Source of the DNA: a virus
Lineage: Duplodnaviria > Caudoviricetes
Strand: one strand, 5' to 3'
IMG/VR virus record: IMGVR_UViG_3300012942_000100
Coordinates: 1 to 32,047 of that record
DNA length: 32,047 nt
Shown: in pieces, positions 9,065 through 20,615 of the stretch
How positions within the stretch are numbered: the first letter of the stretch is position 1
Layout of the letters: every line of letters starts with the position of its first letter
The notes under the pieces: model-generated
What the model saw: only the letters and a program-made list of their open reading frames with translations
The model's database searches: none
What the model was told of the DNA's origin: nothing
Position numbers and translations under genes: made by a program

Positions 9065-9303
9065 AGGTGCCAGTAGTGGTTCTTGGAGACCGAGTAGTAC
9101 ACCGTGGTGATGTACATCGTGATCGGCCCAACGATGAACAGGTTCAGCAGCAGACTGTGACCACGCTGCTGACGCACGTACGCTGCTCCGTCACGACCCT
9201 TGAGCTGACGATTGTTGTTGGCGAGTGCAGCAGCCAGATCATCGAGACTGACGTGCTGCTGAGCCGAGACGGGCGCTGCCATGGGTGCATTGTGCTTGGA
9301 CAT
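9061..9303 (-). CDS. Small membrane protein
   Basis: 80 aa, hydrophobic LLLNLFIVGPITMYITTVYY segment; AGGAG RBS. Confidence 0.7.
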   Translation of the reverse strand: MSKHNAPMAAPVSAQQHVSLDDLAAALANNNRQLKGRDGAAYVRQQRGHSLLLNLFIVGPITMYITTVYYSVSKNHYWHL

Positions 9304-9334
9304 TTGAGTGGACTCCTATGTTGTGAAAGTTGGA

Positions 9335-9383
9335 TGTGGGCCGGACGGAGTCAGTTTGGGGATGAGGAGCCGTCCGGCCACAC
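9335..9383 (-). other. 5'-leader hairpin of the leftward transcript
   Basis: GGCCGGACGG (9339-9348) pairs with CCGTCCGGCC (9370-9379), just downstream of the predicted start site. Confidence 0.5.
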
Positions 9384-9387
9384 CACA

Positions 9388-9416
9388 AGCATTGCACACA
9401 CCGTGCCACCGCGCAA
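9388..9416 (-). promoter_or_regulatory. Leftward promoter of a divergent pair
   Basis: TTGCGC-N17-AATGCT on the minus strand. Confidence 0.55.
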
Positions 9417-9588
9417 GCATCAATATTGGCGCAGCGAGCGACAGATGACGGAGAGCGTCCTTGGACGCGGTTCCGGCACTCTGTCCGCCGAGCGAGCACC
9501 CCTAGTAGCTATTCTCACTAGTATGTCCCTGCTTGTGCCGTTGGCACCGCAGGGAATATAGTGATTCAAAGCTAAAGCTAACAGCCCC

Positions 9589-9617
9589 TTGCGCTAAAAC
9601 CTGGGGTAGGCAATACT
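9589..9617 (+). promoter_or_regulatory. Rightward promoter of a divergent pair
   Basis: TTGCGC-N17-AATACT upstream of AGGAG RBS and ATG 9649. Confidence 0.55.
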
Positions 9618-9648
9618 GGCAGGGCACGCCACACACCTAGGAGAACGC

Positions 9649-9945
9649 ATGAGACAAGAGAACCGAGTTGCACTTACCCACCTGGCTAACGTGCTGGAAG
9701 CACTCGATGAGATTCCAGTAAAAGTGTTGCTCATCGTGCATGACGCCGTGAAGGACTATGCCCTCACAGAGCAGCGCAGCGTCAAGCGCATGGAATCATT
9801 CAAGGACGAGCCTGGAACTGCGCAGAACTACCGCAATGGTGAGCGCTGTTTGCGTGAACTCAACAAGTGCCTCGTAATGCTAGAGGACGAGAATCTGGAG
9901 CGTGCAGTAATGCACATGCGCAGAGCAGCAGAGGCAAAGAAGTGA
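9649..9945 (+). CDS. Hypothetical helical protein
   Basis: 98 aa, AGGAG RBS, first gene of the rightward arm. Confidence 0.75.
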   Translation: MRQENRVALTHLANVLEALDEIPVKVLLIVHDAVKDYALTEQRSVKRMESFKDEPGTAQNYRNGERCLRELNKCLVMLEDENLERAVMHMRRAAEAKK

Positions 9946-10397
9946 ATAATCGCAGAGAATCAACCCTAAAGAAGCTGCTTAGCAGTCTGCGAGACGGAGA
10001 CGACCCACAGGGTGTGGCAAGGGATCTAGCTGTAGCACTCAGAGAAGAGATGAAGTCGGACAAGCGCTATGTGCAGGATAAGATGACCGACGCGCACCAG
10101 AATTCAGTGAGAGCACAGGCAATCCTAGAAGTAACCATTGAGTTGCTAGAATCTGGTGATACAGCACAAGCTTGTGATGAACTTGCTCATCTATTTGGTG
10201 AAGTATCAGTAGCGCCTAAGACTGTAGAAGAGCGTATCTCCATCCGTAAGGGCGCTAAGATTGTTACTCTCCTGGATACCCGAAGCCCTAACTTTGAGCA
10301 TGACAGATCTAGGATAGCTGCTGAAATCCGTAAAGCCAACCTTGCCAATGGGTGGGCAGCTGCTGAGTATGATGAGTACCTGAGGAGTACAAAATGA
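9942..10397 (+). CDS. Hypothetical protein
   Basis: GTG start overlapping the previous stop (GTGA), 151 aa. Confidence 0.7.
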   Translation: MNNRRESTLKKLLSSLRDGDDPQGVARDLAVALREEMKSDKRYVQDKMTDAHQNSVRAQAILEVTIELLESGDTAQACDELAHLFGEVSVAPKTVEERISIRKGAKIVTLLDTRSPNFEHDRSRIAAEIRKANLANGWAAAEYDEYLRSTK

Positions 10398-10567
10398 ACT
10401 ACACACTGATGTACGTCCTGTTCGTGCTAGCGTGCCTAGTGCTATCAGCAATTGCCGCCTACCTGATTGATAGGTGGAACTGGCGACGTACCTATGGCCA
10501 GCAGATGCGACACAGGCGTGGCATCAAGCGAGGACGCGGCCACACTAGACATGAGGAGGATGACTGA
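10394..10567 (+). CDS. 57-aa single-TM membrane protein (not in ORF track)
   Basis: MNYTLMYVLFVLACLVLSAIAAYLIDRWNWRR...; GAGGAG RBS; ATGA overlap. Confidence 0.65.
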   Translation: MNYTLMYVLFVLACLVLSAIAAYLIDRWNWRRTYGQQMRHRRGIKRGRGHTRHEEDD

Positions 10568-10698
10568 TGGCCATGTGTCCATTCTGCAAGACTCACTACA
10601 CACATGAGCGTGACAACGTGCAGGCGATCAAAGACTGCGCACGGCGCGACATTGTTGCTCATGTGGCCGAGAAGATGGAAATTAGAAGCAATGGCTAG
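10567..10698 (+). CDS. 43-aa CxxC/His protein (not in ORF track)
   Basis: MAMCPFCKTHYTHERDNVQAIKDCARR...; GAGGAGG RBS; TGATG overlap. Confidence 0.6.
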   Translation: MAMCPFCKTHYTHERDNVQAIKDCARRDIVAHVAEKMEIRSNG

Positions 10699-10885
10699 CT
10701 GGCGTGTGGAGAAGATGCACCAGCACTGCAAGGGCTGTAGCGAGTGTGCTGCTGCTGCCATTGAATGGGCCAACAAGACGGATGCCGACCGTGCCACCAG
10801 CACCGATCACACCGCTGACATGGTGGCGCTGCACAGTGCCACGGTCGTGCTGAAATCTTCAGAAGGAGGGCTTGCGCAACCCTGA
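10691..10885 (+). CDS. 64-aa protein with HxxxCxxC motif
   Basis: MASWRVEKMHQHCKGCSECAAAA...; overlaps the previous stop. Confidence 0.55.
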   Translation: MASWRVEKMHQHCKGCSECAAAAIEWANKTDADRATSTDHTADMVALHSATVVLKSSEGGLAQP

Positions 10886-10900
10886 TGGTTGAGCAATAAT
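10872..10900 (+). promoter_or_regulatory. Promoter for a leaderless gene at 10907
   Basis: TTGCGC-N17-AATAAT, 6 nt before the ATG. Confidence 0.6.
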
Positions 10901-10906
10901 CATCAC

Positions 10907-11056
10907 ATGAGCACTTACACCTTCATCCTCAAGTCCGGCGGTTCCATCATCCTCTACAACTGCTTCATCGTAGGCAATGGCGTTGCGGGAGAGCTGGCTG
11001 ACGGTCTGCCGCGCTGGATCGCCGACGAGGACATCGAGTACTCCCACAAGCACTAG
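10907..11056 (+). CDS. 49-aa hypothetical protein, leaderless (not in ORF track)
   Basis: MSTYTFILKSGGSIILYNCFIVGNGVAGELADGLPRWIADEDIEYSHKH; GC-rich third positions. Confidence 0.65.
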   Translation: MSTYTFILKSGGSIILYNCFIVGNGVAGELADGLPRWIADEDIEYSHKH

Positions 11057-11145
11057 TCCACACCCCGAAAAGGAGTCCATGGCTACCGTGCTGGCCAGAA
11101 CGCCAACACAGGAGAGAAGTCCATCAACAACAGGAAGGCACTGGC

Positions 11146-11301
11146 ATGAACCGCGAGAAGCTGTTCGAGCAGCTAGGATTCTCGTGGGACGACCCATTCA
11201 ACATCGGGGAGTTCCGAATCACCGACAAGGAAGGAGGCGTCCACATGGCCAACGTGTGGGAGAGCCGCCTCATCAACGCAATCGAAGGAATGATCAAGTG
11301 A
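11146..11301 (+). CDS. 51-aa hypothetical protein (not in ORF track)
   Basis: MNREKLFEQLGFSWDDPFNIGEFRITDKEGGVHMANVWESRLINAIEGMIK; GGAAGG RBS. Confidence 0.65.
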   Translation: MNREKLFEQLGFSWDDPFNIGEFRITDKEGGVHMANVWESRLINAIEGMIK

Positions 11302-11423
11302 GCAAGCAGCGCAAGAAGCTCCATTGCATCTGCAAGGGCAAGCAGGACCGGGTCCACCCCGGCACCGACCACCAGAAGCACATCGCCACGTGCCCGATGG
11401 TAACGGGTAGGCGTGACAGCTGA
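11298..11423 (+). CDS. 41-aa Cys/His-rich protein
   Basis: MSKQRKKLHCICKGKQDRVHPGTDHQKHIATCPMVTGRRDS; GTGA overlap, AAGGAA RBS. Confidence 0.55.
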   Translation: MSKQRKKLHCICKGKQDRVHPGTDHQKHIATCPMVTGRRDS

Positions 11424-11536
11424 TGGACGTCTGGTACGAGTGCACGTCGTGCAGCTTCGCCACCAACTCGCAGAAGTCCAGCTGGACTCACGAGCTCGAG
11501 ACCGGTCACAAGGTCAACGAGTCAGACAACGAATGA
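11423..11536 (+). CDS. 37-aa C2H2 zinc-finger micro-protein (not in ORF track)
   Basis: MDVWYECTSCSFATNSQKSSWTHELETGHKVNESDNE has C-x2-C-x12-H-x5-H; TGATG overlap. Confidence 0.6.
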   Translation: MDVWYECTSCSFATNSQKSSWTHELETGHKVNESDNE

Positions 11537-11540
11537 CCCA

Positions 11541-11579
11541 CGGCCACACCAAGTTCCTTAGCGCCGCTAGGTGTGGCCG
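11541..11579 (+). terminator. Hairpin ending the micro-gene operon
   Basis: CGGCCACACC (11541-11550) pairs with GGTGTGGCCG (11570-11579); no U-tract. Confidence 0.4.
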
Positions 11580-11584
11580 CCCCA

Positions 11585-11613
11585 TTGTGGGAAAATAATC
11601 TATGCGCTAAACT
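11585..11613 (+). promoter_or_regulatory. Promoter for the nucleotide-modification cluster
   Basis: TTGTGG-N17-TAAACT; same gcTAAACT -10 as the 4166 promoter. Confidence 0.45.
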
Positions 11614-11661
11614 TAGCTAAGCCCGGTGCCCCATACCGGCAGAACAGTCCAAGGAGGACTC

Positions 11662-12411
11662 ATGCTGCACACAAACTCCATCGACGACGTCGTTCAGGCG
11701 CTGGCCGCAGCCTACATCGATCCCCGTACTGGGAACAAGGTGCTCTACTCGGTCAGCTGGCTGGCCGACAAGGACTCCATGATCGGCCACATCAACAAGG
11801 ACTGGGTCCGCCGCGAGCTCGACTGGTTCAACAGTGGCAGCAACAACGTCAACGACATGGAAGGACCTGTGCCGAGCCTGTTCCGGGCCTGCGCAGGCGA
11901 GGACGGCAAGGTCAACAGCGCCTACGGGTACATCCTGTTCGGCAGCGGCGAGTTCCTGCCCCCGGTGCCCAGCCTGTACGAGCGCATCGTGCAGACCCTC
12001 ATCAACGAGGGAGCAGGCACGCGCCACGCAGTCGCCATCATCAGCGACCGCGACATCCACTACATCAGCAAGTACAGTGGGCGTCACGACTTCATCTGCA
12101 CCAACGCACTCAACGTCATGGTTGACGCGGACAACCAGTTGCACATCATCGCGCAGATGCGCAGCATGGACGCGGTGTTCGGCTACAGGGCCGACTACAG
12201 TATGTGGGACAGCCTCATGACCCGGCTGCTGCAGGACCTGGCGCTGGTCATCCCCGGCATCGAGCGCGGCAACATCTACTTCCAGGTGGCCAACCTGCAC
12301 GTCTACCCGCGTCACTTCGCGCTGCTGCAGGACGTCGCCTACGACACCGAAGAGCGCCTGGCCCGCCGAGTGTGGCAGAACCCGGTGCGCATTCCCGGTC
12401 TGGACAAGTGA
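11662..12411 (+). CDS. Thymidylate-synthase-fold enzyme, T4 gp42-like dCMP hydroxymethylase
   Basis: AAGGAGG RBS; RELDW, VNSAYG, DFICTN, MRSMDAVFGYRADY and NLHVYPRHF parallel T4 gp42 (RELEW, INSNYG, DFMCTN, MRSNDVVFGFRNDY, SLHVYSRHF). Confidence 0.85.
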   Translation: MLHTNSIDDVVQALAAAYIDPRTGNKVLYSVSWLADKDSMIGHINKDWVRRELDWFNSGSNNVNDMEGPVPSLFRACAGEDGKVNSAYGYILFGSGEFLPPVPSLYERIVQTLINEGAGTRHAVAIISDRDIHYISKYSGRHDFICTNALNVMVDADNQLHIIAQMRSMDAVFGYRADYSMWDSLMTRLLQDLALVIPGIERGNIYFQVANLHVYPRHFALLQDVAYDTEERLARRVWQNPVRIPGLDK

Positions 12412-12581
12412 TGGTCCCGCAGCGCAGCCGCAGGGGGCTGGCCATCATCATCCTCTGCGTGCTGGTAGTGGCCGTGCTGCTGGCCGCGTGGCTCATCCTG
12501 GTGGGCCTGTGGTGGGTCATCGCCATCGTGGGCGCAGCAGCACTCGTCTACACGATCATCGAAGGGTACTGGAAGCCATGA
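12411..12581 (+). CDS. 56-aa two-TM membrane protein
   Basis: Very hydrophobic; TGATG-coupled to the hydroxymethylase gene. Confidence 0.7.
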   Translation: MVPQRSRRGLAIIILCVLVVAVLLAAWLILVGLWWVIAIVGAAALVYTIIEGYWKP

Positions 12582-12871
12582 CCGCAACGCTCTGGACCGT
12601 CATCGGCTACATGGGTCAGCTGTTCCTGCTGCTGCTCCTAGCCATCCTCCTCTTCATCGTCCTGGCAGGGCTGGGGCTGGCCATCTGGCGCGCAGTAGCC
12701 AAGCTGCTGCACCGCCAGCCCAAGTACCGGCCAGAGCAGGACCTGGAGAAGTACGTGCGGGAGGTCAACGCCATCAGCGCCAGTCAGTACGGCAGTGGCA
12801 CACACGACCGTGAGGTCTTCCGCGCAGGTGCCAACTGGGCGTGGGGCTACTTCCACCGGAAGCACAGCTGA
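12578..12871 (+). CDS. 97-aa membrane protein
   Basis: N-terminal Leu-rich TM segment; ATGA overlap. Confidence 0.7.
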   Translation: MTATLWTVIGYMGQLFLLLLLAILLFIVLAGLGLAIWRAVAKLLHRQPKYRPEQDLEKYVREVNAISASQYGSGTHDREVFRAGANWAWGYFHRKHS

Positions 12872-13098
12872 TGGCACACGCAATTCACCTGAATGGTGGT
12901 CCCTGGCACGACAAGGTGGTCGCCATAGAGGATGGCCGTGACCACATCCACTTGGTCATGCCAGACATCGACCCGGCCAAGATGCTTGACCCGACTGCTG
13001 CTGGCGAGCGTGTCCCTGTCAAGGAGGGCACGTACAGCCAAGTGCTGGGAGAACCGGATCAGTTCGAGTGGGATGGATGGGGGTCGACCCGTGCCTAA
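12871..13098 (+). CDS. 75-aa hypothetical protein (LxGGP motif)
   Basis: MAHAIHLNGGPWHDK...; TGATG overlap. Confidence 0.65.
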   Translation: MAHAIHLNGGPWHDKVVAIEDGRDHIHLVMPDIDPAKMLDPTAAGERVPVKEGTYSQVLGEPDQFEWDGWGSTRA

Positions 13099-14029
13099 CG
13101 AGCACATCGCGCTACTGCGCACGCCCAAGCTGACCAAATGGTTATACCCCATCTACGTGCCTAGCTACAGCCGGGCCGGTAGCGCACCACTGCTGGAGAT
13201 GCTGAAGGACGCTAGCGACTACGTCCAGCGCAATGTGACGATCGTTGTGCGTCCCGAGGAGGTCAGCGACTACCACCTGGCCTACCCGTGGGCAGTTGTC
13301 ATCGCAGAACGCCAGCCAGGGATCGGCCCGGCCCGAATGCGCTGCTTGCGTAACGCTGAGCGTCGTGGGTACAAGCGCATCGTCGTGCTAGATGACGACA
13401 TCATCCACGTCAGCCTGCTGGAGCGACCCGCTGGCAGCAGCCACACGCGCCGATACAGCGCCAAGGTCAGCGGCTGGGCTGAGCCCGGCCTACTGGTGCG
13501 CAGCTTGGCTGTCGCCTGCCACCTGGCCGACGGGGTGTTCAAGGTGCGCCCGGCTGCAAGCTACGGCGCAGCCCGCAACGCGCTCTTCAGCGGTGACGTA
13601 GACACCAGCATCGGGGCCACACTCAACAAGGGCAGCTTCCCGGCCTGCGTCATGTTCATGGACGTTGAGCGGTTCACCATGCGTGAGCGCGACCTGCCTG
13701 CGGAGTTCCACTTCCACGGTGAGGACCTAGCCATGTTCCTGGATGCCCTGACGCAGGAGCAGGAAGTGTTCACCTTGCCTGGTGTGGCCTACGACCAGCA
13801 CGGCAGCATCCAGACCACGATCCCACTGGACCCGCAGGACGCAGTTGGCAGGCCGCACCTGCAACACACCGCTGACGCCTACCCATACATGCATGACTTC
13901 CTGCGAGTGAGCATGAAGAACAAGCTTGGCGGCGTCATGCGAATCGGAGTAAACTGGAACCGCTGGTACAAGGCCACCGGCACCGAGCCGGTGGAGATTC
14001 CACTGACAGAGCTCATCAAGGAGAGCTAG
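13091..14029 (+). CDS. GT-A glycosyltransferase, TAGT / beta-glucosyl-HMC-alpha-glucosyltransferase-like
   Basis: IYVPSYSRAG, IVVRPEE, GIGPAR, VLDDDI (DxD) and HGEDL motifs, as in the T2/T6 second glucosyltransferase family. Confidence 0.8.
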   Translation: MPNEHIALLRTPKLTKWLYPIYVPSYSRAGSAPLLEMLKDASDYVQRNVTIVVRPEEVSDYHLAYPWAVVIAERQPGIGPARMRCLRNAERRGYKRIVVLDDDIIHVSLLERPAGSSHTRRYSAKVSGWAEPGLLVRSLAVACHLADGVFKVRPAASYGAARNALFSGDVDTSIGATLNKGSFPACVMFMDVERFTMRERDLPAEFHFHGEDLAMFLDALTQEQEVFTLPGVAYDQHGSIQTTIPLDPQDAVGRPHLQHTADAYPYMHDFLRVSMKNKLGGVMRIGVNWNRWYKATGTEPVEIPLTELIKES

Positions 14030-14602
14030 ATGTTCATCGCGTTTGAAGGCCCAGACAACGTGGGCAAGTCCACCAGCGCAGCCAACCTGGCGACTAGTGG
14101 CCATGCTATCTACAATGCCACTAAGGGTGTGCACCAGGTAGAGCAGCAGCGAATCAACCCCGAACCGGATCTATTGGTCACGTACGATCGTATCGACTGG
14201 TTCAGCCACATGGTGTACCGGCTAGCACTGCCCACGCACGAGTGGAACGACGCTCGGGTGCGCACCGTGTTCGCCATGCCAGACACTCACCTGGTGGTGA
14301 AGTTACACCGCCCAGACATGGCTGAGAAGATCAGCGATGAGCTGTACAAGACCGGCACGCTGGCAGAGGTCAACCCCGTGTACTACTACTTCACGGACTG
14401 GCTGATGCAGCTCAATCGCATTCGTGAGTACAACCTGTTCAAGACGATCAGCATCGTAGAGGTCGTCAACGACCAGCAGGGCAACTTCAGCCAGCGTCTG
14501 GCAGCGTTCGACAGCCCTATTGCTGAGCGCTGGGACGAGGCTGACGGCTGGACAGACGAGGCACTGCTGGAGTTGTTGCGCCATGAAGACCAGCACCGCT
14601 AA
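14030..14602 (+). CDS. Thymidylate-kinase-like dNMP kinase
   Basis: IAFEGPDNVGKST P-loop and YDR motif. Confidence 0.85.
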   Translation: MFIAFEGPDNVGKSTSAANLATSGHAIYNATKGVHQVEQQRINPEPDLLVTYDRIDWFSHMVYRLALPTHEWNDARVRTVFAMPDTHLVVKLHRPDMAEKISDELYKTGTLAEVNPVYYYFTDWLMQLNRIREYNLFKTISIVEVVNDQQGNFSQRLAAFDSPIAERWDEADGWTDEALLELLRHEDQHR

Positions 14603-15305
14603 GCTGGCTCAGTACCGGCACGAGGACCACGTCTTCAAGATAGGAGCGCTGCTCAAGAGAACAGAGCCAACCTACCCGTTAGCAGTACGGCTGGAAGCTC
14701 AGCAGGAGATTCTCAGCTGGCGCGACAACGGACTCATCCTGCAAGAGTATGGAAAGGAAGTGAACATGGCTCAGCAGAAGACGCGGGCGCATGCCAAGCC
14801 CGACCCCAAGACGTTCAGCGGTCAGGGCATCATCTTCGCTGTGGTTGACGACCGTGAGGAGATGCGTACTGGACGTGTGACTACCATCGATGTCATCGCT
14901 GATGGCATTGAGAAGGCGCTGGACAACGGCAAGGAGACCAGCGAGGATATCGCTAGGTACCTCACCACCAGCGCGTTCCAGCATGTGCCAGACAAGCGCG
15001 TGCGGTTCAACAGCATTCTCAAAGCCGGAGACGCTGTGGGCGCTATGATCACCCGCAAGCTGTACAATGCGTACAACGAGCTGGCTGCCATGGCGGACGA
15101 GGAAGAGGACGCCAAGAAGAAGGCCACACTCAAGGAGGAAGCACGTGGGTTCGCCGAGGCGCTGAACGTGGTCATTAGCCCTTTCTCGTGCGAAGACAGC
15201 GAAGACCCGCGTCTGGTCAACTGGGATGAGGTTGACCGTATCACGGCCAACTTCGAGAAGGAGCAGCGAGAGGTTCGCCGAGCGAGGAAAGGAAATCCGC
15301 AGTGA
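14583..15305 (+). CDS. Hypothetical protein (alternative start 14766)
   Basis: 240-aa ORF; internal GAAAGGAAG RBS before ATG 14766. Confidence 0.7.
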   Translation: MKTSTAKLAQYRHEDHVFKIGALLKRTEPTYPLAVRLEAQQEILSWRDNGLILQEYGKEVNMAQQKTRAHAKPDPKTFSGQGIIFAVVDDREEMRTGRVTTIDVIADGIEKALDNGKETSEDIARYLTTSAFQHVPDKRVRFNSILKAGDAVGAMITRKLYNAYNELAAMADEEEDAKKKATLKEEARGFAEALNVVISPFSCEDSEDPRLVNWDEVDRITANFEKEQREVRRARKGNPQ

Positions 15306-15685
15306 ACGAGGCAGTAGAGAAAGTACAAGCAGCAGAGGGCTTCGACTTCCTGCTGGATCTCCAGCTTCAGGTGGAAGAAGGCTGGGGACGAGCCATCGAT
15401 CCCAGCATCGACGAGGACGTGAGCAGCTATGTGCGCGACGTGGTACTGTGTGCCACGGACGAGCTGCATGAGGTCCTCGCTGAGGTCCACTGGAAGCCGT
15501 GGAAGGACAAGCGCGGCATCAAGGACATCTCCAAGTACCGTGAGGAGATGGCAGACGTGCTGCACTTCATCCTGGACCTGTACCTGGCAGCGGGTCTCAC
15601 CGGTCAGGACATCGTCACCGACTACATCGCCAAGAACACCGAGAACCTGCTCAGGATCAAGAACCCCGACTACCGAGCAAGCTAG
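15302..15685 (+). CDS. All-alpha NTP pyrophosphatase (dimeric dUTPase / T4 gp56 dCTPase / MazG-like)
   Basis: DELHEVLAEVHWKPWK and EEMADVLHF motifs, C-terminal YIAKNTENLLR. Confidence 0.85.
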   Translation: MNEAVEKVQAAEGFDFLLDLQLQVEEGWGRAIDPSIDEDVSSYVRDVVLCATDELHEVLAEVHWKPWKDKRGIKDISKYREEMADVLHFILDLYLAAGLTGQDIVTDYIAKNTENLLRIKNPDYRAS

Positions 15686-15694
15686 GAGAACACA

Positions 15695-15856
15695 ATGAAA
15701 CCCACGAGTGAACAGAAGGTGCTTGCCGACGAGGCAACCGAAGGCGCACGTCGTGCCGAGCGCCAGTACGAGCTGGAGCGCGCTAAGGTGCTGGCGCTCG
15801 CTAGCATAGCGCAGAGCCTGGCAGTCATCTCAGAAGCCATCGCAGAGGACATGTGA
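15695..15856 (+). CDS. 53-aa helical hypothetical protein (not in ORF track)
   Basis: MKPTSEQKVLADEATEGARRAERQYELERAKVLALASIAQSLAVISEAIAEDM; AGGAG RBS. Confidence 0.65.
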   Translation: MKPTSEQKVLADEATEGARRAERQYELERAKVLALASIAQSLAVISEAIAEDM

Positions 15857-16017
15857 TGCCGGGCAAGGTGCTGAGCTGGGGAGACAAGCACAAGTGCTTC
15901 CTCCTGGTGCCACCCGAGGCCGGTATTCTTGCTCCGGTGGGCACCAAGTGGCAGTGCAGCGAGTGTGGCACCGTGTGGACACTTGTCAAGGGCAAGGGCT
16001 GGCAGCCCCATGTCTAG
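15856..16017 (+). CDS. 53-aa zinc-ribbon-like protein (not in ORF track)
   Basis: HKC...KWQCSECGTVW; TGATG overlap, GAGGA RBS. Confidence 0.65.
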   Translation: MPGKVLSWGDKHKCFLLVPPEAGILAPVGTKWQCSECGTVWTLVKGKGWQPHV

Positions 16018-16477
16018 GTCAAGTTGGGACACCGTCTGGGCTGATGTGGCCCGGGCGGTGTCTCGTCGTAGTAGTTGCACACGTGCCCAGGTTGGTGCTG
16101 TCTTGGTCAAGGAGAACCGAGTGGTAGCCACGGGCTACAACGGCCCTGCCAGCGGCTACCCCGGAGACACCGACCTGGGGTGCACGGCCTGGTGCGCCAG
16201 GGCTAGCCAGCAGCCCCAGCAGCAGGCTGGCTATGGGTTTAGCTGCCCCAGCATACACGCCGAGGCCAACGCGCTGCTGTACGCCAGCCGAAGAGACGCT
16301 GAGCAGGCCACACTCTACGTAACCCATGCACCGTGCGCGGATTGTGCCAAGCTCATCAGCAACAGTGGTGTAGCGAGAGTGGTGCTGCTGCAAGAACCCG
16401 AGCCGCACCGACCAGATCCTATCCCGTATCTTGTGTCGTGTGGTTTGGAAGTGAGCGTATACTATGGAGTTACGTGA
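16010..16477 (+). CDS. dCMP deaminase
   Basis: RSSCTRAQVGAVLV, TGYNG, HAEANAL and PCADCAK Zn-deaminase motifs. Confidence 0.92.
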   Translation: MSRSSWDTVWADVARAVSRRSSCTRAQVGAVLVKENRVVATGYNGPASGYPGDTDLGCTAWCARASQQPQQQAGYGFSCPSIHAEANALLYASRRDAEQATLYVTHAPCADCAKLISNSGVARVVLLQEPEPHRPDPIPYLVSCGLEVSVYYGVT

Positions 16478-17825
16478 GAGCCAACGTATCGCTCTGGAAC
16501 GCCTCACCGAGTCAGGTCGCCACTATGCCGCTCTGTGGGCTGAGCCACGTAGCGGCAAGACGGCCGTGGCTCTCAAGTGGCTGGAGCACGTGCAGCCCGA
16601 GGTTGCTGTCATAGTCGGTCCCAAGATTGCTGAAGGCACCTGGCGTACAGAGGCTGCCAAGTGGCTGGAGGTAGACCACAGGTTCTACCCGTTGACAGCT
16701 GGTAACGAGTACCCGGACCCGTGGCAGTTCAGGGGAATGACACTCCTGTTTGTCAACTATGAGCAGTTCGGTAAGATGCCATGGAAGCGCCTACGTCCGT
16801 ACCTAGCTAAGCTGGCCAAGCTAGCTGGTGACAAGGGTGCTATGCTACTTGACGAGAGCCATATGATCAAGACACCTAACAGTGTTACTGGTCGTAATAT
16901 TCGTCCTCTGGCTGCTCAGTGGCATTACAGGCTACTCATGACCGGAACACCTGTCACTAATCCGGACCAGGTAGACGCTGTGTATGGCCAGTGGACGTTC
17001 CTGAATCCAGACATACGCGACAACTGGCCTACAGCGCGTGACTTCCGTGAACACTTTGGCGAGTGGACAAACGTCAAAGGTTACCCCGAGCTGATACGAC
17101 CACGAAACCAATATGAGCTGAACAGCTACATCCAGTCTGACGTCATCACGATGGTTGGACCTGGGGAGCCTGTACCTGTGCGCAAGATCACCTACCCAGT
17201 ACCGGCTCAGGTGCTGGCCTGGCACAAGGCCATGCTCAAGAAGGGTGTGTTCGAGCTAGACGGTCACGACATTGTTGGGCTCAACCCACTGACACGACTT
17301 CTGCGCATGCGCATGCTGGTGGCTGGCTGGGTAAAGGACGACATGGGCCAGAGCATTACCGTGCAGGCTTCCGCCCGTGCCCGGCTGGCAGCTCTCGGTA
17401 ACGTGGTAAAGCGGTGTGACGGTAAGATCATCATAGCCTGCACTCACCTGCATGAGGTGAAGCTCGTGAGGCGCTGGCTACGACGCAGAGGCATCGGTCA
17501 CCTGGTGATCACTGGGGCCACACGTGAGAAGAACGCCGTCATTGACAACTTCCAGCACGACCCTGCCGCGCGCGTGCTGCTGGTACAGCCGCGCACTGTG
17601 GCCATGGCGGTGGACATCAGCGTAGCAAACGACCTTATCTGGTACACCAGCGACTTCAACTACGTCACGTTCAAGCAGGCCAGTGACCGCATCAAGCTGA
17701 GCCCGGCCAACCCTACAGTGTGGTTCCTGTGTGGCTGTGGCACTGTGGACCAGGACGTGTGGGCCACACTGCAGGAAGACCACGACCACCTACGCAAAGT
17801 CATCCGCCGCATCCGCAAGCCCTAG
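16464..17825 (+). CDS. SF2 (SNF2-like) DNA helicase
   Basis: LRESQ Q-motif, PRSGKT, LLDESH, MTGTP and QASDRI motifs. Confidence 0.9.
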   Translation: MELRESQRIALERLTESGRHYAALWAEPRSGKTAVALKWLEHVQPEVAVIVGPKIAEGTWRTEAAKWLEVDHRFYPLTAGNEYPDPWQFRGMTLLFVNYEQFGKMPWKRLRPYLAKLAKLAGDKGAMLLDESHMIKTPNSVTGRNIRPLAAQWHYRLLMTGTPVTNPDQVDAVYGQWTFLNPDIRDNWPTARDFREHFGEWTNVKGYPELIRPRNQYELNSYIQSDVITMVGPGEPVPVRKITYPVPAQVLAWHKAMLKKGVFELDGHDIVGLNPLTRLLRMRMLVAGWVKDDMGQSITVQASARARLAALGNVVKRCDGKIIIACTHLHEVKLVRRWLRRRGIGHLVITGATREKNAVIDNFQHDPAARVLLVQPRTVAMAVDISVANDLIWYTSDFNYVTFKQASDRIKLSPANPTVWFLCGCGTVDQDVWATLQEDHDHLRKVIRRIRKP

Positions 17826-17871
17826 AGTGGCTAGGACAAAAGATCTATTTCAGAAATTATCTGTTTTGGGC

Positions 17872-17900
17872 TTGCATTGCTGTGCCAGGTCAGGCATACT
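17872..17900 (+). promoter_or_regulatory. Promoter for the basic protein and tRNA-like RNA
   Basis: TTGCAT-N17-CATACT with an AT-rich upstream tract. Confidence 0.6.
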
Positions 17901-17957
17901 AACTCTTGTCAGCGGCACCCGCCGCAACTCACAGGCCCATCAATCAAGGAGATCACA

Positions 17958-18338
17958 ATGGCCACCAAGAACACCGCCGCTGTCGAAGAGGTCGAGGAGA
18001 CCACGGCCGAGCCGACCACCAAGCAGCTCATCGGAGAGGGCATCGCAAAGGTCATCGAGGCGACCGGCATCGACGTCCAGAAGAACCGCTACAAGGCCAT
18101 GCGTGCCATCGCCTACCAGGCGTTCAGCGACGCGATCGAAGAGGGCACGTTCGACGACCTCGTCGAGTCGGCCATCGCCAACGTCGACAACCTGCCCAGC
18201 GGCTGGGAGATCGAGCGCGCGCCCAAGGAGGACGAGAAGCCGGTCGCCAAGAAAACGCCGGCGAAGGCCCCGGCCAAGAAGCCGGTCGCCAAGTCCGCGG
18301 CTGCCAAGCCCGCCGCGCGCCCGCGTCCGCGCCGCTAG
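17958..18338 (+). CDS. 126-aa protein with histone-H1/HupB-like PAKK tail
   Basis: AAGGAG RBS; C-terminus KPVAKKTPAKAPAKKPVAKSAAAKPAARPRPRR. Confidence 0.8.
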   Translation: MATKNTAAVEEVEETTAEPTTKQLIGEGIAKVIEATGIDVQKNRYKAMRAIAYQAFSDAIEEGTFDDLVESAIANVDNLPSGWEIERAPKEDEKPVAKKTPAKAPAKKPVAKSAAAKPAARPRPRR

Positions 18339-18344
18339 CAAGAC

Positions 18345-18388
18345 CAACGGCCAGCAGCTTAACCCCCCGGGCTGCTGGCCGTTGCTTT
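18345..18388 (+). terminator. 14-bp hairpin with short U-tract (leaky terminator or processing signal)
   Basis: CAACGGCCAGCAGC (18345-18358) pairs with GCTGCTGGCCGTTG (18371-18384), followed by CTTT. Confidence 0.6.
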
Positions 18389-18389
18389 C

Positions 18390-18538
18390 GGGACTGTAGC
18401 TCAACGGTAGAGCATCGAGAGCAGATAAGTTGTCCTAGTCCTCAGCAGGACCGGGTATTCGCGCTATCTGGAGCCGACTAAGCCTCAAGGTTATGAGGAG
18501 AAGCTTTCGAGATGTAGGTTCGAATCCTGCCAGTTCCA
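18390..18538 (+). ncRNA. tRNA-Ala-like RNA with an 80-nt structured insert in place of the anticodon loop
   Basis: Acceptor GGGACTG/CAGTTCC plus A; D arm GCTC-AACGGTA-GAGC; stem TCGAGAGC/GCTTTCGA; T arm GTAGG-TTCGAAT-CCTGC. Confidence 0.75.
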
Positions 18539-18761
18539 CGATCCCCTCATAATTACCGGGGATGCTCCTAGGCAATTGGACGCCGAGCCCTAGAGACGCG
18601 CGGGACAGCCGAAGAGCGCACAACTGAATACCTGGACACAGTTGCTCCTGGGCTTTGCCAGGCGTGTCAGTTCCTACGTTGCTACCCAGCTTGGGTCTAG
18701 GACAGCAGGCGGTCTTGCACTCCGTGGAACGTGCTCCTACCCACTTTGGAGGAGTCCACCA

Positions 18762-20615
18762 ATGGAGCTGTACGTAACAGACAGCCTAGCTGAGACCAGA
18801 GAGTATCTGGCTCAGAGCAATAGCCACATCATTACCGACATTGAGACCACGTCTCTGTCGGTAGGTCAGGGACAGCTGCTGTGCGTAGGATTCGCGCCGT
18901 ACGACAGAGAAGACGTGCTGGTGTGGTGGCCCGAGACCGAGGAAGACATTGCACGTCTCGCCATCAGCAAGATGACTGCTCACAACAGCCCGTTTGAGCG
19001 TAGATGGCTCAAGAGCTATGGTGCCAAGGTGCACACTACGTGGGACACCATGTTCATGGCACATCTGCTAGATGAGAATCACCCCATCGGTCTCAAGGAC
19101 CTGGGCATGCGTCTGCTCGGATATGAGGACTGGGGAGACGACAACGTAGCAGGGTTCGGTAGTGAGTTTGGTCAGTTCTGGACTGATCGCCACCTACCCA
19201 CAAAGTCAAAGTCACGGGTCAGCAAATACAATGGCATGGACGTTCACGTCACTCGTGAGTTAGAGCGGTGGCAGCGCAAGCACATAGCCAAGAACTTGAA
19301 GCCTGGCGAGAATCCCGTGCACGTCATGCGCCACATCATGATTCCTGCTGTGGTACCTCTTAGCCAGATGGAGGACAACAAACTACCGGTTCGACTCAGC
19401 GTGGTGAAGAAGACACGCGAGAAGGTCGAGCAGCAGATCGCAGATATCGAGCGCAAGCTAGACCGCAGTATCCCAGATGTGGACAAGTGGCCTGACTGGC
19501 TCAAGAAGACCAAGCCTAAGTGGGGCAACACTAACTGGACCAAGTGGTGGCTATTCGTCTACCAGGGCGCTCTCTGCCCGGCACGCGGCAAGCCCACCAA
19601 GACCTGGCCCGAGGGCAACCCCAGCCTAGCTGCTGAGAACCTCTCCAAGATCGACCACCCGGCAGCACGTCTGCTTACCGAGCGCGGCAGCTTATACAAG
19701 CAGCTCACCGGATTCCTTGTGCCTATTGAGCAGCGCACCAAGGATGGCAGAATCGGCACTAGCTTCAGTCTCACCGGTACCGTCACGGGTCGCCTGAGCA
19801 GCAGTAGCCCCGGCAAGCACGACCCAGGGCTCAACAGCCAGCAGATTCCACGAGATAAGGCCACACGTAACCTGTTCGGTGAGCGCGGGCAGGCATGGAT
19901 TGAGGCCGACTTCAGCCAGCTTGAGCTACGTGTGGCCGCGGTGATGTCTAACGAACCTAACATGATCAGCCTGTTCGAGGCTGGCGAGGACATTCACACC
20001 TACATCGGTAGGCGTGTGACACGTAGTGAGACTCTCACCAAGGAGCAGCGCAGCCTCGCCAAAGGTGTCAACTTCGGCTTCCTCTACGGCATGATGGCTA
20101 AGCACTTTGCCAATTACGTGTTTGAGAACTACGGTGTGAAGATTACACCCAAAGAGGCAGAGGCGTTCCGTGAGGAGTACTTCACTACCTTCAGCGCTCT
20201 ACCTGATTGGTACCGTAAGCAGCGTCGTGAGGCCCTAGAGTATGGCGGAGTACATAACGAGTTCGGTAGGTTCCGTCACCTGCCACGCGTGTATCATAGC
20301 GACTTCTGGGTACAGGAGAATGCGTTCCGTCAGGCTATCAACAGCCCGGTACAGTCTACCGGTAGCGACTTTATGCTTATTAGCCTGGCTAGGCTTGGCG
20401 GGGACTTGCGCTTGCGCCAGCTAGGTGCCAAACTTATTACAACCGTTCACGATTCTGTGTGCCTAACGGCACCCTACAAGACAGCACGTCGAGTAGGTAG
20501 AATTGTCAAAGAAACAATGGAACAGGCCGATGACACGCTCCCCAGAAAGTTCTTCCTCAAAGCCGACGTCACAATCTCCCGATGCTGGGGTGGCGAACCA
20601 CTCGCAGAGTTCTGA
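18762..20615 (+). CDS. polA: Family A DNA polymerase with 3'-5' exonuclease
   Basis: GGAGG RBS; DIET ExoI, TVTGRLSSS, ADFSQLELR, AKGVNFGFLYG and VHDS motifs; no 5'-3' exonuclease domain. Confidence 0.95.
   Translation: MELYVTDSLAETREYLAQSNSHIITDIETTSLSVGQGQLLCVGFAPYDREDVLVWWPETEEDIARLAISKMTAHNSPFERRWLKSYGAKVHTTWDTMFMAHLLDENHPIGLKDLGMRLLGYEDWGDDNVAGFGSEFGQFWTDRHLPTKSKSRVSKYNGMDVHVTRELERWQRKHIAKNLKPGENPVHVMRHIMIPAVVPLSQMEDNKLPVRLSVVKKTREKVEQQIADIERKLDRSIPDVDKWPDWLKKTKPKWGNTNWTKWWLFVYQGALCPARGKPTKTWPEGNPSLAAENLSKIDHPAARLLTERGSLYKQLTGFLVPIEQRTKDGRIGTSFSLTGTVTGRLSSSSPGKHDPGLNSQQIPRDKATRNLFGERGQAWIEADFSQLELRVAAVMSNEPNMISLFEAGEDIHTYIGRRVTRSETLTKEQRSLAKGVNFGFLYGMMAKHFANYVFENYGVKITPKEAEAFREEYFTTFSALPDWYRKQRREALEYGGVHNEFGRFRHLPRVYHSDFWVQENAFRQAINSPVQSTGSDFMLISLARLGGDLRLRQLGAKLITTVHDSVCLTAPYKTARRVGRIVKETMEQADDTLPRKFFLKADVTISRCWGGEPLAEF

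Follow-up and report, generated by a model that had tools for sequence, protein, structure and literature searches.

The 32,047 nucleotides of viral DNA analysed here (IMG/VR record IMGVR_UViG_3300012942_000100; hereafter the window) carry, between positions 11,662 and 16,477, a cluster of nucleotide-metabolism genes headed by a protein of the thymidylate synthase fold. Does this cluster supply thymidylate, as the labels of its relatives say, or does it modify cytosine, and how much of the cytosine in the genome is then replaced? A preliminary description, made from the sequence alone, proposed a route from dCTP to deoxycytidine monophosphate (dCMP), 5-hydroxymethyl-dCMP (hm-dCMP), hm-dCTP and DNA, followed by glycosylation of the resulting 5-hydroxymethylcytosine (hmC), as in phage T4. 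We observed directly the sequence itself, the membership of its products in known protein families, a gene order and content conserved among relatives of Microbacterium cluster EA phages, and a shortage of C-rich palindromes in the DNA. Taken together, these features incline us modestly towards glycosylated hmC on part of the cytosines.

The thymidylate synthase-fold enzyme

11662..12411, + strand: dCMP hydroxymethylase-type enzyme (T4 gp42 family), 249 amino acids; labelled 'thymidylate synthase' in relatives

The open reading frame begins with ATG at 11662. Direct reading of the sequence confirms the two residues on which the preliminary description was built, Cys146 (TGC at 12097, in DFICTN) and Asp178 (GAC at 12193, in RSMDAVFGYRAD), which align with C148 and D179 of T4 gp42 and with C146 and N177 of Escherichia coli ThyA. 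Searched against the PDB as a single sequence, the enzyme has T4 gp42 as its top match (E 2.3e-27, with ThyA at 3.8e-5), and a profile of 120 sequences gives E values of 5.9e-36 for T4 gp42, 2.6e-4 for ThyA and 3.2e-4 for MilA. Mutational analysis of T4 gp42 found S94, Y96, D145, C148 and D179 to be required for hydroxymethylation and E60 to be conserved, with D145/S94/Y96 forming the hydroxymethylation signature (Park et al. 2019, PMC6400193). These six positions, in the same order, are S86, Y88, D143, C146, D178 and E52 in the window enzyme. Among the 120 best of 318 homologues, the sample for all residue counts given for this enzyme, E52, S86, Y88, D143 and D178 are invariant and C146 is present in 119, the remaining sequence being gapped. 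The acidic D143, three residues ahead of the cysteine, and its partner S86 correspond to the water-activation pair of gp42, and the marks of ThyA are absent: the window enzyme has D178, D143 and T147 where ThyA has Asn177, a hydrophobic residue at 143 and His147.

Phylogeny places the enzyme in the same family. In a 22-row tree the EA-type enzymes are sister to T-even gp42 (support 100/99), with long-branch warnings for the outgroups. An 89-row quick tree, which includes 67 library representatives (the members of 200-360 amino acids of the best 80 of 1267 matches), recovers them as a clade of their own (100) within a 72-row gp42-like group (Shimodaira-Hasegawa-like approximate likelihood ratio 96) that is separate from RB69/RL38J1, Xp12 and ThyA; 65 of the 67 library representatives carry the D-C-D-D signature. 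Because the EA-type clade is not nested among the T-evens, these sequences place it as an old branch of the gp42 family and not a recent gift from T4. A tblastn search with the enzyme matched 969 phage records, 191 of them Microbacterium phages at 60-80% identity; the other 778 lie below 60% and are mostly T-even-like. The proposal that the enzyme is gp42-like rather than ThyA is thus borne out by PDB matches, signature residues and trees, and its full gp42 active-site signature argues strongly that its product would be hm-dCMP. A MilA-type CMP hydroxymethylase, whose CMP preference is marked by Ala176 and Lys133 (Zhao et al. 2016, PMC5175136), was ruled out by the retention of R121 and S168 and by the trees.

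Partners of the enzyme and conservation of the cluster

The cluster genes all lie on the + strand and mostly abut or overlap:

12411..13098, + strand: three small genes (56, 97 and 75 amino acids), the first two hydrophobic; phrog_4198, phrog_5300; patchy in relatives
13091..14029, + strand: GT-A glycosyltransferase of the TAGT family (PF20691), 312 amino acids
14030..14602, + strand: thymidylate-kinase-like P-loop nucleotide kinase, 190 amino acids; likely phosphorylates hm-dCMP
14583..15305, + strand: conserved all-helical protein, 240 amino acids, between kinase and pyrophosphatase; phrog_4086
15302..15685, + strand: all-alpha NTP pyrophosphatase of the gp56/dimeric-dUTPase family, 127 amino acids; dUTPase_2, E 1e-11
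15695..16017, + strand: two small genes (53 and 54 amino acids)
16010..16477, + strand: dCMP deaminase (HAE...PCxxC), 155 amino acids; PF00383, E 7e-23
16464..17825, + strand: SNF2-type helicase, a fixed landmark downstream of the cluster
18762..20615, + strand: family A DNA polymerase (PolA), the likely incorporator of hm-dCTP

The GT-A glycosyltransferase of the preliminary description is present and belongs to the DNA-acting TAGT family (Pfam E 1e-12, 48.6 bits against a cut-off of 27.5). Its predicted model has a GT-A fold (predicted local distance difference test, pLDDT, 96) and resembles T-even TAGTs; TAGT proteins are its top named viral fold matches, that of PKO111 among the top. R82, D101-D103 and E211-D212 are present in 120 of 120 homologues (the best of 176). 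This R...DDD...ED motif is that of phage DNA GT-A enzymes and of JGT (Pyle et al., bioRxiv 2023.12.21.572611), although the residue following E211-D212 is Leu rather than the Tyr or Phe of the ED(Y/F) motif. The 174 phage records with transferase homologues are all of Microbacterium phages.

To follow the cluster across genomes, 53 loci spanning enzyme to helicase were collapsed at 90% identity to 27, the window included. The order enzyme, glycosyltransferase, kinase, 240-residue protein, pyrophosphatase, helicase is conserved in these non-redundant loci, and the clustering is therefore not due to chance. The kinase is found in 27 of 27, the 240-residue gene in 26, the transferase in 25 by tblastn, L022 having a weak TAGT in addition, and the deaminase in 10. 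Each locus holds one pyrophosphatase, of the gp56/dUTPase_2 type in 12 and of the PRA-PH/MazG type in 15, and never both; the two families swap for each other, and therefore the function matters. Far from being the peculiarity of one small genome, the cluster is common to the whole EA group. Its chemistry is known from the T-evens, and the cluster is both more widespread and further from T4 than the preliminary description supposed. The same cluster, with an enzyme 56% identical, also occurs in a clade of 33-37 kb and 53-54% GC (L035-L037, L040, L078-L084) that has strong CpG loss (0.61-0.62), little loss of 6-bp palindromes, and no cultured match closer than the EA phages.

The transferase slot is modular. 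We found no glycosyltransferase of the cluster in the genome of Golden; the slot is empty in the EA4-like L023, L027, L070 and L098, holds a very distant TAGT in L022 (E 0.004) and a TAGT 24-27% identical in L001, L031, L032, L086 and L087, and carries two TAGTs in tandem in L064, with two also in QuadZero, CaptainRex and Zepp. An arms race against nucleases or glycosylases that depend on modification would be expected to produce such variation (none, one, divergent, two).

The nucleotide kinase is a P-loop protein, matching phrog_4121 'thymidylate kinase' (E 6.5e-78) and no Pfam family; it is thymidylate-kinase-like rather than of the T4 gp1 type, and its alignment with RB69p045 is confined to the P-loop. 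Neither a gp1-type kinase nor an alpha- or beta-glucosyltransferase gave a Pfam or PHROG match among the 40 window proteins of this 79% complete genome. The 240-residue gene, missed in the preliminary description, has 271 homologues and a helical model (pLDDT 71), with no Pfam match and no usable Atlas match. The all-alpha pyrophosphatase was correctly recognised: it aligns with the RB69 gp56 dCTPase (pairwise E 2e-12) and contains the WKPW and E..D..HF motifs. Dimeric dUTPases share these motifs, also align and are its best PDB matches, and the sequence is thus compatible with either a dCTPase or a dUTPase. For the PRA-PH/MazG type of other loci the best PDB match is DR2231, which we take to have dUTPase activity. 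The dCMP deaminase assigned to the pathway is present in the window and is accessory, being found in 10 of the 27 loci and absent from the annotated EA phages examined. No Microbacterium phage is among its 40 best cultured-phage matches, which reach at most 49% identity and come from phages of Actinomycetia and Micrococcus, and it recurs in uncultured EA-like loci at 64-75%.

The window, a linear piece of phage DNA of 32 kb, shares virion and replication genes in EA order with the cluster EA phages TeddyBear and Golden; identity to these two is 59-78% for capsid, portal, terminase, helicase and polymerase. By these genes the window genome is akin to the siphoviruses of Microbacterium cluster EA; the 'actinobacterial siphovirus' of the preliminary description holds as to phage kinship, and an actinobacterial host is presumed from these relatives. 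Cluster EA comprises lytic siphoviruses and accounted for 52 of the 116 isolates described by Jacobs-Sera et al. 2020 (PMC7302621), where the right-arm annotations include 'thymidylate synthase' and 'MazG-like' and DNA modification is unmentioned beside these terms. Between 26864 and 31769 lie two tail genes and a lysin with a phage tail lysozyme domain, none of which has a match in TeddyBear or Golden; the lysin weakly matches Dismas, and one tail gene matches Chepli. These differing genes suggest a different host strain or genus for the window phage. A promoter and terminator scan of 9300-19000 gave chance-level results (2 versus 3.1 and 6 versus 6.0).

Extent of cytosine replacement

In the pathway that we propose, the pyrophosphatase would convert dCTP to dCMP, remove dUTP, or both; the gp42-type enzyme would, on strong grounds, convert dCMP to hm-dCMP; the kinase would yield hm-dCDP, and host NDP kinase the triphosphate. 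PolA would then incorporate hm-dCTP in competition with dCTP, giving a mosaic genome if the pyrophosphatase leaves dCTP in the pool, and the TAGT would glycosylate hmC in DNA. A host UDP-sugar is the likely donor, because the cluster holds no sugar-nucleotide genes. Where present, the deaminase would most simply feed dUMP to host thymidylate synthase, since no ThyA or ThyX was seen in the window. The proposed route from dCTP to glycosylated DNA keeps its enzyme, its TAGT and its gp56-like pyrophosphatase, and loses its need for the deaminase and probably its T4-like completeness.

That replacement would be partial is suggested by the continuing loss of restriction sites, which is most simply read as many cytosines being unmodified, with single unprotected sites remaining lethal. 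Coliphages with a hydroxymethylase avoid 2.4% of host restriction sites, compared with 55.8% in relatives without one (PMC6286503), and the share of type II enzymes resisted is 82% for T4gt DNA, 94% for that of T4 and 90% for that of Xp12 (PMC7653180). Against maximal-order Markov expectations, the 27 pooled loci, which are related and partial, have 42 GCCGGC of 209 expected, 17 GGCGCC of 115, 10 GGGCCC of 108 and 43 CCGCGG of 134, compared with 97 of 96, 64 of 73, 32 of 34 and 61 of 71 in a 50-kb stretch of Xp12, in which all cytosine is 5-methylcytosine (5mC); EB phages have near-expected counts of the same palindromes. When the 6-bp palindromes that contain C are counted as one class, the ratio of observed to expected is 0.54-0.87 in 26 loci and 1.02 in one, as against 0.89 in Xp12, 0.92 in T4, 1.06 in RB69, 0.94-0.96 in EB phages, 0.51 in Fork, 0.49 in Theresita, 0.71 in AnnaSerena and 0.94 in Hyperion; the controls are few, with seven non-EA GC-rich genomes. 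The loss persists under synonymous-codon shuffling, is specific to palindromes (none of 2734 non-palindromic hexamers is nearly absent in the window) and is specific to lineages (CAGCTG is seen 0 times of 31 expected in Golden and 60 of 58 in L025). The preliminary description had the pathway shield a GC-rich genome against restriction; taken as in T4, this is contradicted by the persistent loss of C-containing sites.

Other compositional features are graded. Runs of eight G/C-only bases are at 0.10-0.66 of expectation in 19 EA-like sets and at 0.78-0.92 in six of seven others, the exception being AnnaSerena (0.47), which lies outside EA and carries ThyX-like and oxidoreductase genes. In homologous virion arms the same ratio is 0.44 for Golden and 0.84 for Theresita, and the window and EA-like loci have a graded CpG shortage with excess TpG/CpA relative to other Microbacterium phages. 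Selection against stretches of dense modification would fit the G/C-run and CpG shortages, but AnnaSerena is short of such runs as well. Two nuclease specificities were tried as causes of depletion and found unsupported: BisI-type GCNGC, since GCWGC is not depleted and only GCSGC is low, and McrA-type YCGR, at 0.88-1.09. Golden and L070, both EA4-like and without a transferase, each have a palindrome ratio of 0.57, which gives only a hint of weaker protection where the transferase is missing.

The same data can be read as complete T4-like replacement of cytosine by hmC or its glycosylated form, with palindromes missing through modification-dependent nucleases, crowding of bulky bases on both strands, or history; we regard this as a serious alternative of clearly lower probability. 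All T4-equivalent functions, including a gp56-like pyrophosphatase, are present and conserved, and the gene set (thymidylate synthase, deaminase, PRA-PH, PolA) resembles that enriched in contigs that MetaGPA screens class as modified (bioRxiv 2024.12.05.627091). A 5mC-dependent BisI homologue is reported from Microbacterium barkeri (PMC4926085), and crowding could explain why non-palindromic G/C-only runs are scarce, although AnnaSerena lacks them too. Against complete replacement, CAGCTG, GAGCTC, CTGCAG and AAGCTT fall to zero in some lineages only, which is the ordinary type II pattern, and ApaI, KasI, NgoMIV, PvuII and HindIII are listed as non-cutting on T4gt or Xp12 DNA (PMC7653180), T4 having few GC-only sites. 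The stretches of Xp12, T4 and RB69 lack such palindrome loss.

It is unlikely that hm-dCMP is made and then deaminated to hm-dUMP and hm-dUTP, so that 5-hydroxymethyluracil (hmU) replaces thymine, or that it scarcely reaches DNA. C-containing sites would then stay exposed, as observed; some phage deaminases linked to thymidylate synthase homologues prefer 5-methyl- or 5-hydroxymethylcytosine nucleotides and yield hmU in DNA on co-expression (bioRxiv 2024.12.05.627091), and TAGT relatives such as JGT act on hmU (bioRxiv 2023.12.21.572611). Site loss is nevertheless the same in the 17 of 27 loci that have no deaminase but retain the enzyme, the kinase and the transferase, and the best solved relatives of the deaminase are ordinary dCMP deaminases. 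By analogy with those linked enzymes, hmU as a side product of the deaminase is possible.

A hydroxycytosine product, which the preliminary description had kept as an alternative, is very improbable. The flavin-using 5-hydroxy-dCMP synthases of the RB69/DLP3/RL38J1 type do share N177D, an acidic residue 143 and thymidylate-kinase-like neighbours, and are marked by D169N (Lee et al. 2026, PMC13326640). That substitution is absent in 120 of 120 homologues, all of which retain the equivalent D170; E52 is kept where RB69 and RL38J1 have Phe, these two branch apart in the trees, and their sugar-nucleotide genes have no counterpart in the cluster. Least credible of all is ordinary thymidylate supply by ThyA, dTMP kinase, dUTPase and dCMP deaminase, for although 39 of the 40 best records are labelled thymidylate synthase (the other ThyX-like), kinase, dUTPase-like and deaminase genes fit dTTP synthesis, dUTPases or DR2231 are the best PDB matches of both pyrophosphatase types and the site loss is like that of unmodified phages, the N177D, L143D and Ser94-equivalent residues and the phylogeny are all gp42-like, dTTP supply has no use for the DNA-type glycosyltransferase that 25-26 of 27 loci carry, and no dihydrofolate reductase (DHFR) was found among 40 scanned window proteins or in annotated EA records, an absence expected of hydroxymethylation because it does not oxidise folate.

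Several points weigh against partial glycosyl-hmC, the reading that we favour. Every one of its chemical steps is predicted from sequence, and a search for nanopore runs of an EA1-type stretch listed none. The window's own avoidance is mild (ratio 0.75, a single palindrome of 39 being nearly absent), avoidance is slight in two members of low GC (0.85 and 1.02), and Hyperion, with no known modification, shows little loss as well, so that the test is noisy and low avoidance is no proof of modification. The EB phages, without site loss, have a pyrophosphatase that resembles gp56 as much as the window's does, and the idea that pyrophosphatase type sets the degree of site loss is unsupported (medians 0.69 and 0.70, p 0.71); this type does not explain why replacement is incomplete. 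Of the phosphate-binding pair Arg123/Arg124 of T4, R121 is kept and the second residue is replaced by H122, though this position varies across gp42-like proteins. Finally, the characterised TAGT of T2 and T6 acts on a base that already bears one glucose and attaches another (PMC13216743), and direct action of a solitary TAGT on hmC is suggested by analogy with 5mYOX-linked GT-A enzymes; solitary TAGTs occur in 288 of 753 genomes and are flagged as unexplained (PMC13216743).

Related phages and known systems

Candidate cytosine- or base-modifying systems of other kinds occur in further phages. The EB phages Dismas (L101:38333-39265) and Eden (L102:36997-37890) encode a 'thymidylate synthase' with Asp at the N177 position and Ile or Leu at 143, adjoining a DHFR gene; this enzyme has 97 matching Microbacterium records. 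Both genomes also encode a kinase and a gp56-like pyrophosphatase; their C-rich palindromes are not depleted, and TGATCA is missing from them as it is from all-5mC Xp12 (0/7, 0/12, 0/8). By these features EB phages likely have a dCMP methylase and 5mC DNA. Theresita (EA7, L099:36713-39367) joins an EA-type virion arm to a different right arm without a gp42-type enzyme and with a PurA-like gene, a putative PurZ for Z-base DNA; the EA chassis may swap whole base-modification systems. Thymidylate synthase-fold proteins with Asp at 143, 169 and 177 are encoded by Gordonia phage GodonK (L097:2028-5081, with a kinase and a deaminase) and by Agathobaculum and Bacteroides phages of 45-54 kb (L095, L096, L007), and dCMP-modifying enzymes in actinobacterial or small phages are thus not confined to EA.

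These observations invite a broader and more tentative proposal, which we hold at rather less than even chance: that the most commonly isolated group of Microbacterium phages runs a deliberately partial hmC pathway of T4-derived type, producing a mosaic of plain, hydroxymethylated and glycosylated cytosine, with a solitary TAGT acting on hmC and swapped, doubled or lost between subclusters, alongside EB phages with likely all-5mC DNA and Theresita with a likely Z-base. If so, a single host would be confronted with three different ways of altering the bases of a whole genome, each available in cultured phages. The present reading corrects the label of a gene in about 190 cultured phage records and would extend T4 hydroxymethylcytosine chemistry to small GC-rich actinobacterial siphoviruses. 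EA4 with no transferase, EA1 with one and QuadZero-type phages with two offer a natural comparison for the role of the solitary TAGT, a question that PMC13216743 raises; a pathway that is intact in genomes still losing restriction sites poses the question of how much cytosine is replaced; and new hmC-specific glycosyltransferases would be useful as epigenetics reagents. A search of the open literature, with subscription papers outside it, found none in which cytosine modification is proposed for phages of Microbacterium. This genus is not named in the main text of PMC13326640, PMC8056088, PMC13216743, PMC13390438, PMC8670742, bioRxiv 2023.12.21.572611 or bioRxiv 2024.12.05.627091, although Table S4 and Fig. 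S13 of Pyle et al. and Tables S1-S3 of PMC13216743 may list these phages.

Among known systems, contigs in which a thymidylate synthase homologue adjoins a GT-A DNA glycosyltransferase have been recognised as a class that awaits characterisation (Pyle et al., bioRxiv 2023.12.21.572611). The same adjacency occurs in the Jiaodavirus Klebsiella phage Mineola, where gp42, the best-scoring T-even match to the window enzyme (31%, E 1e-30), is followed by a TAGT gene, 'beta-glucosyl-HMC-alpha-glucosyltransferase'; Mineola differs in being a T4-like myovirus of Enterobacterales, and the transferases are only about 18% identical. The 5-hydroxycytosine pathway of RB69, DLP3 and RL38J1 shares a thymidylate synthase-fold dCMP enzyme, a thymidylate-kinase-like kinase and DNA glycosyltransferases, but requires D169N and flavin and uses GT-B transferases and NDP-sugar genes (PMC13326640). 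Xp12 is likewise a GC-rich tailed phage with PolA and a clustered thymidylate synthase-fold dCMP enzyme and deaminase; it differs in lacking the acidic 143, in having DHFR with no glycosyltransferase seen, and in complete replacement without site loss. With the T-even pathway the EA-type cluster shares the enzyme family and its catalytic signature, a TAGT-family transferase, a pre-replicative logic and, in 12 of 27 loci, a gp56-like pyrophosphatase. It differs from that pathway by residing in a GC-rich siphovirus of about 40 kb with PolA, in which no known genes for degrading host DNA were identified, by its compact single cluster and thymidylate-kinase-like kinase, by the lack of an alpha- or beta-glucosyltransferase match, by a second pyrophosphatase family in 15 of 27 loci, and by restriction sites that are still avoided.

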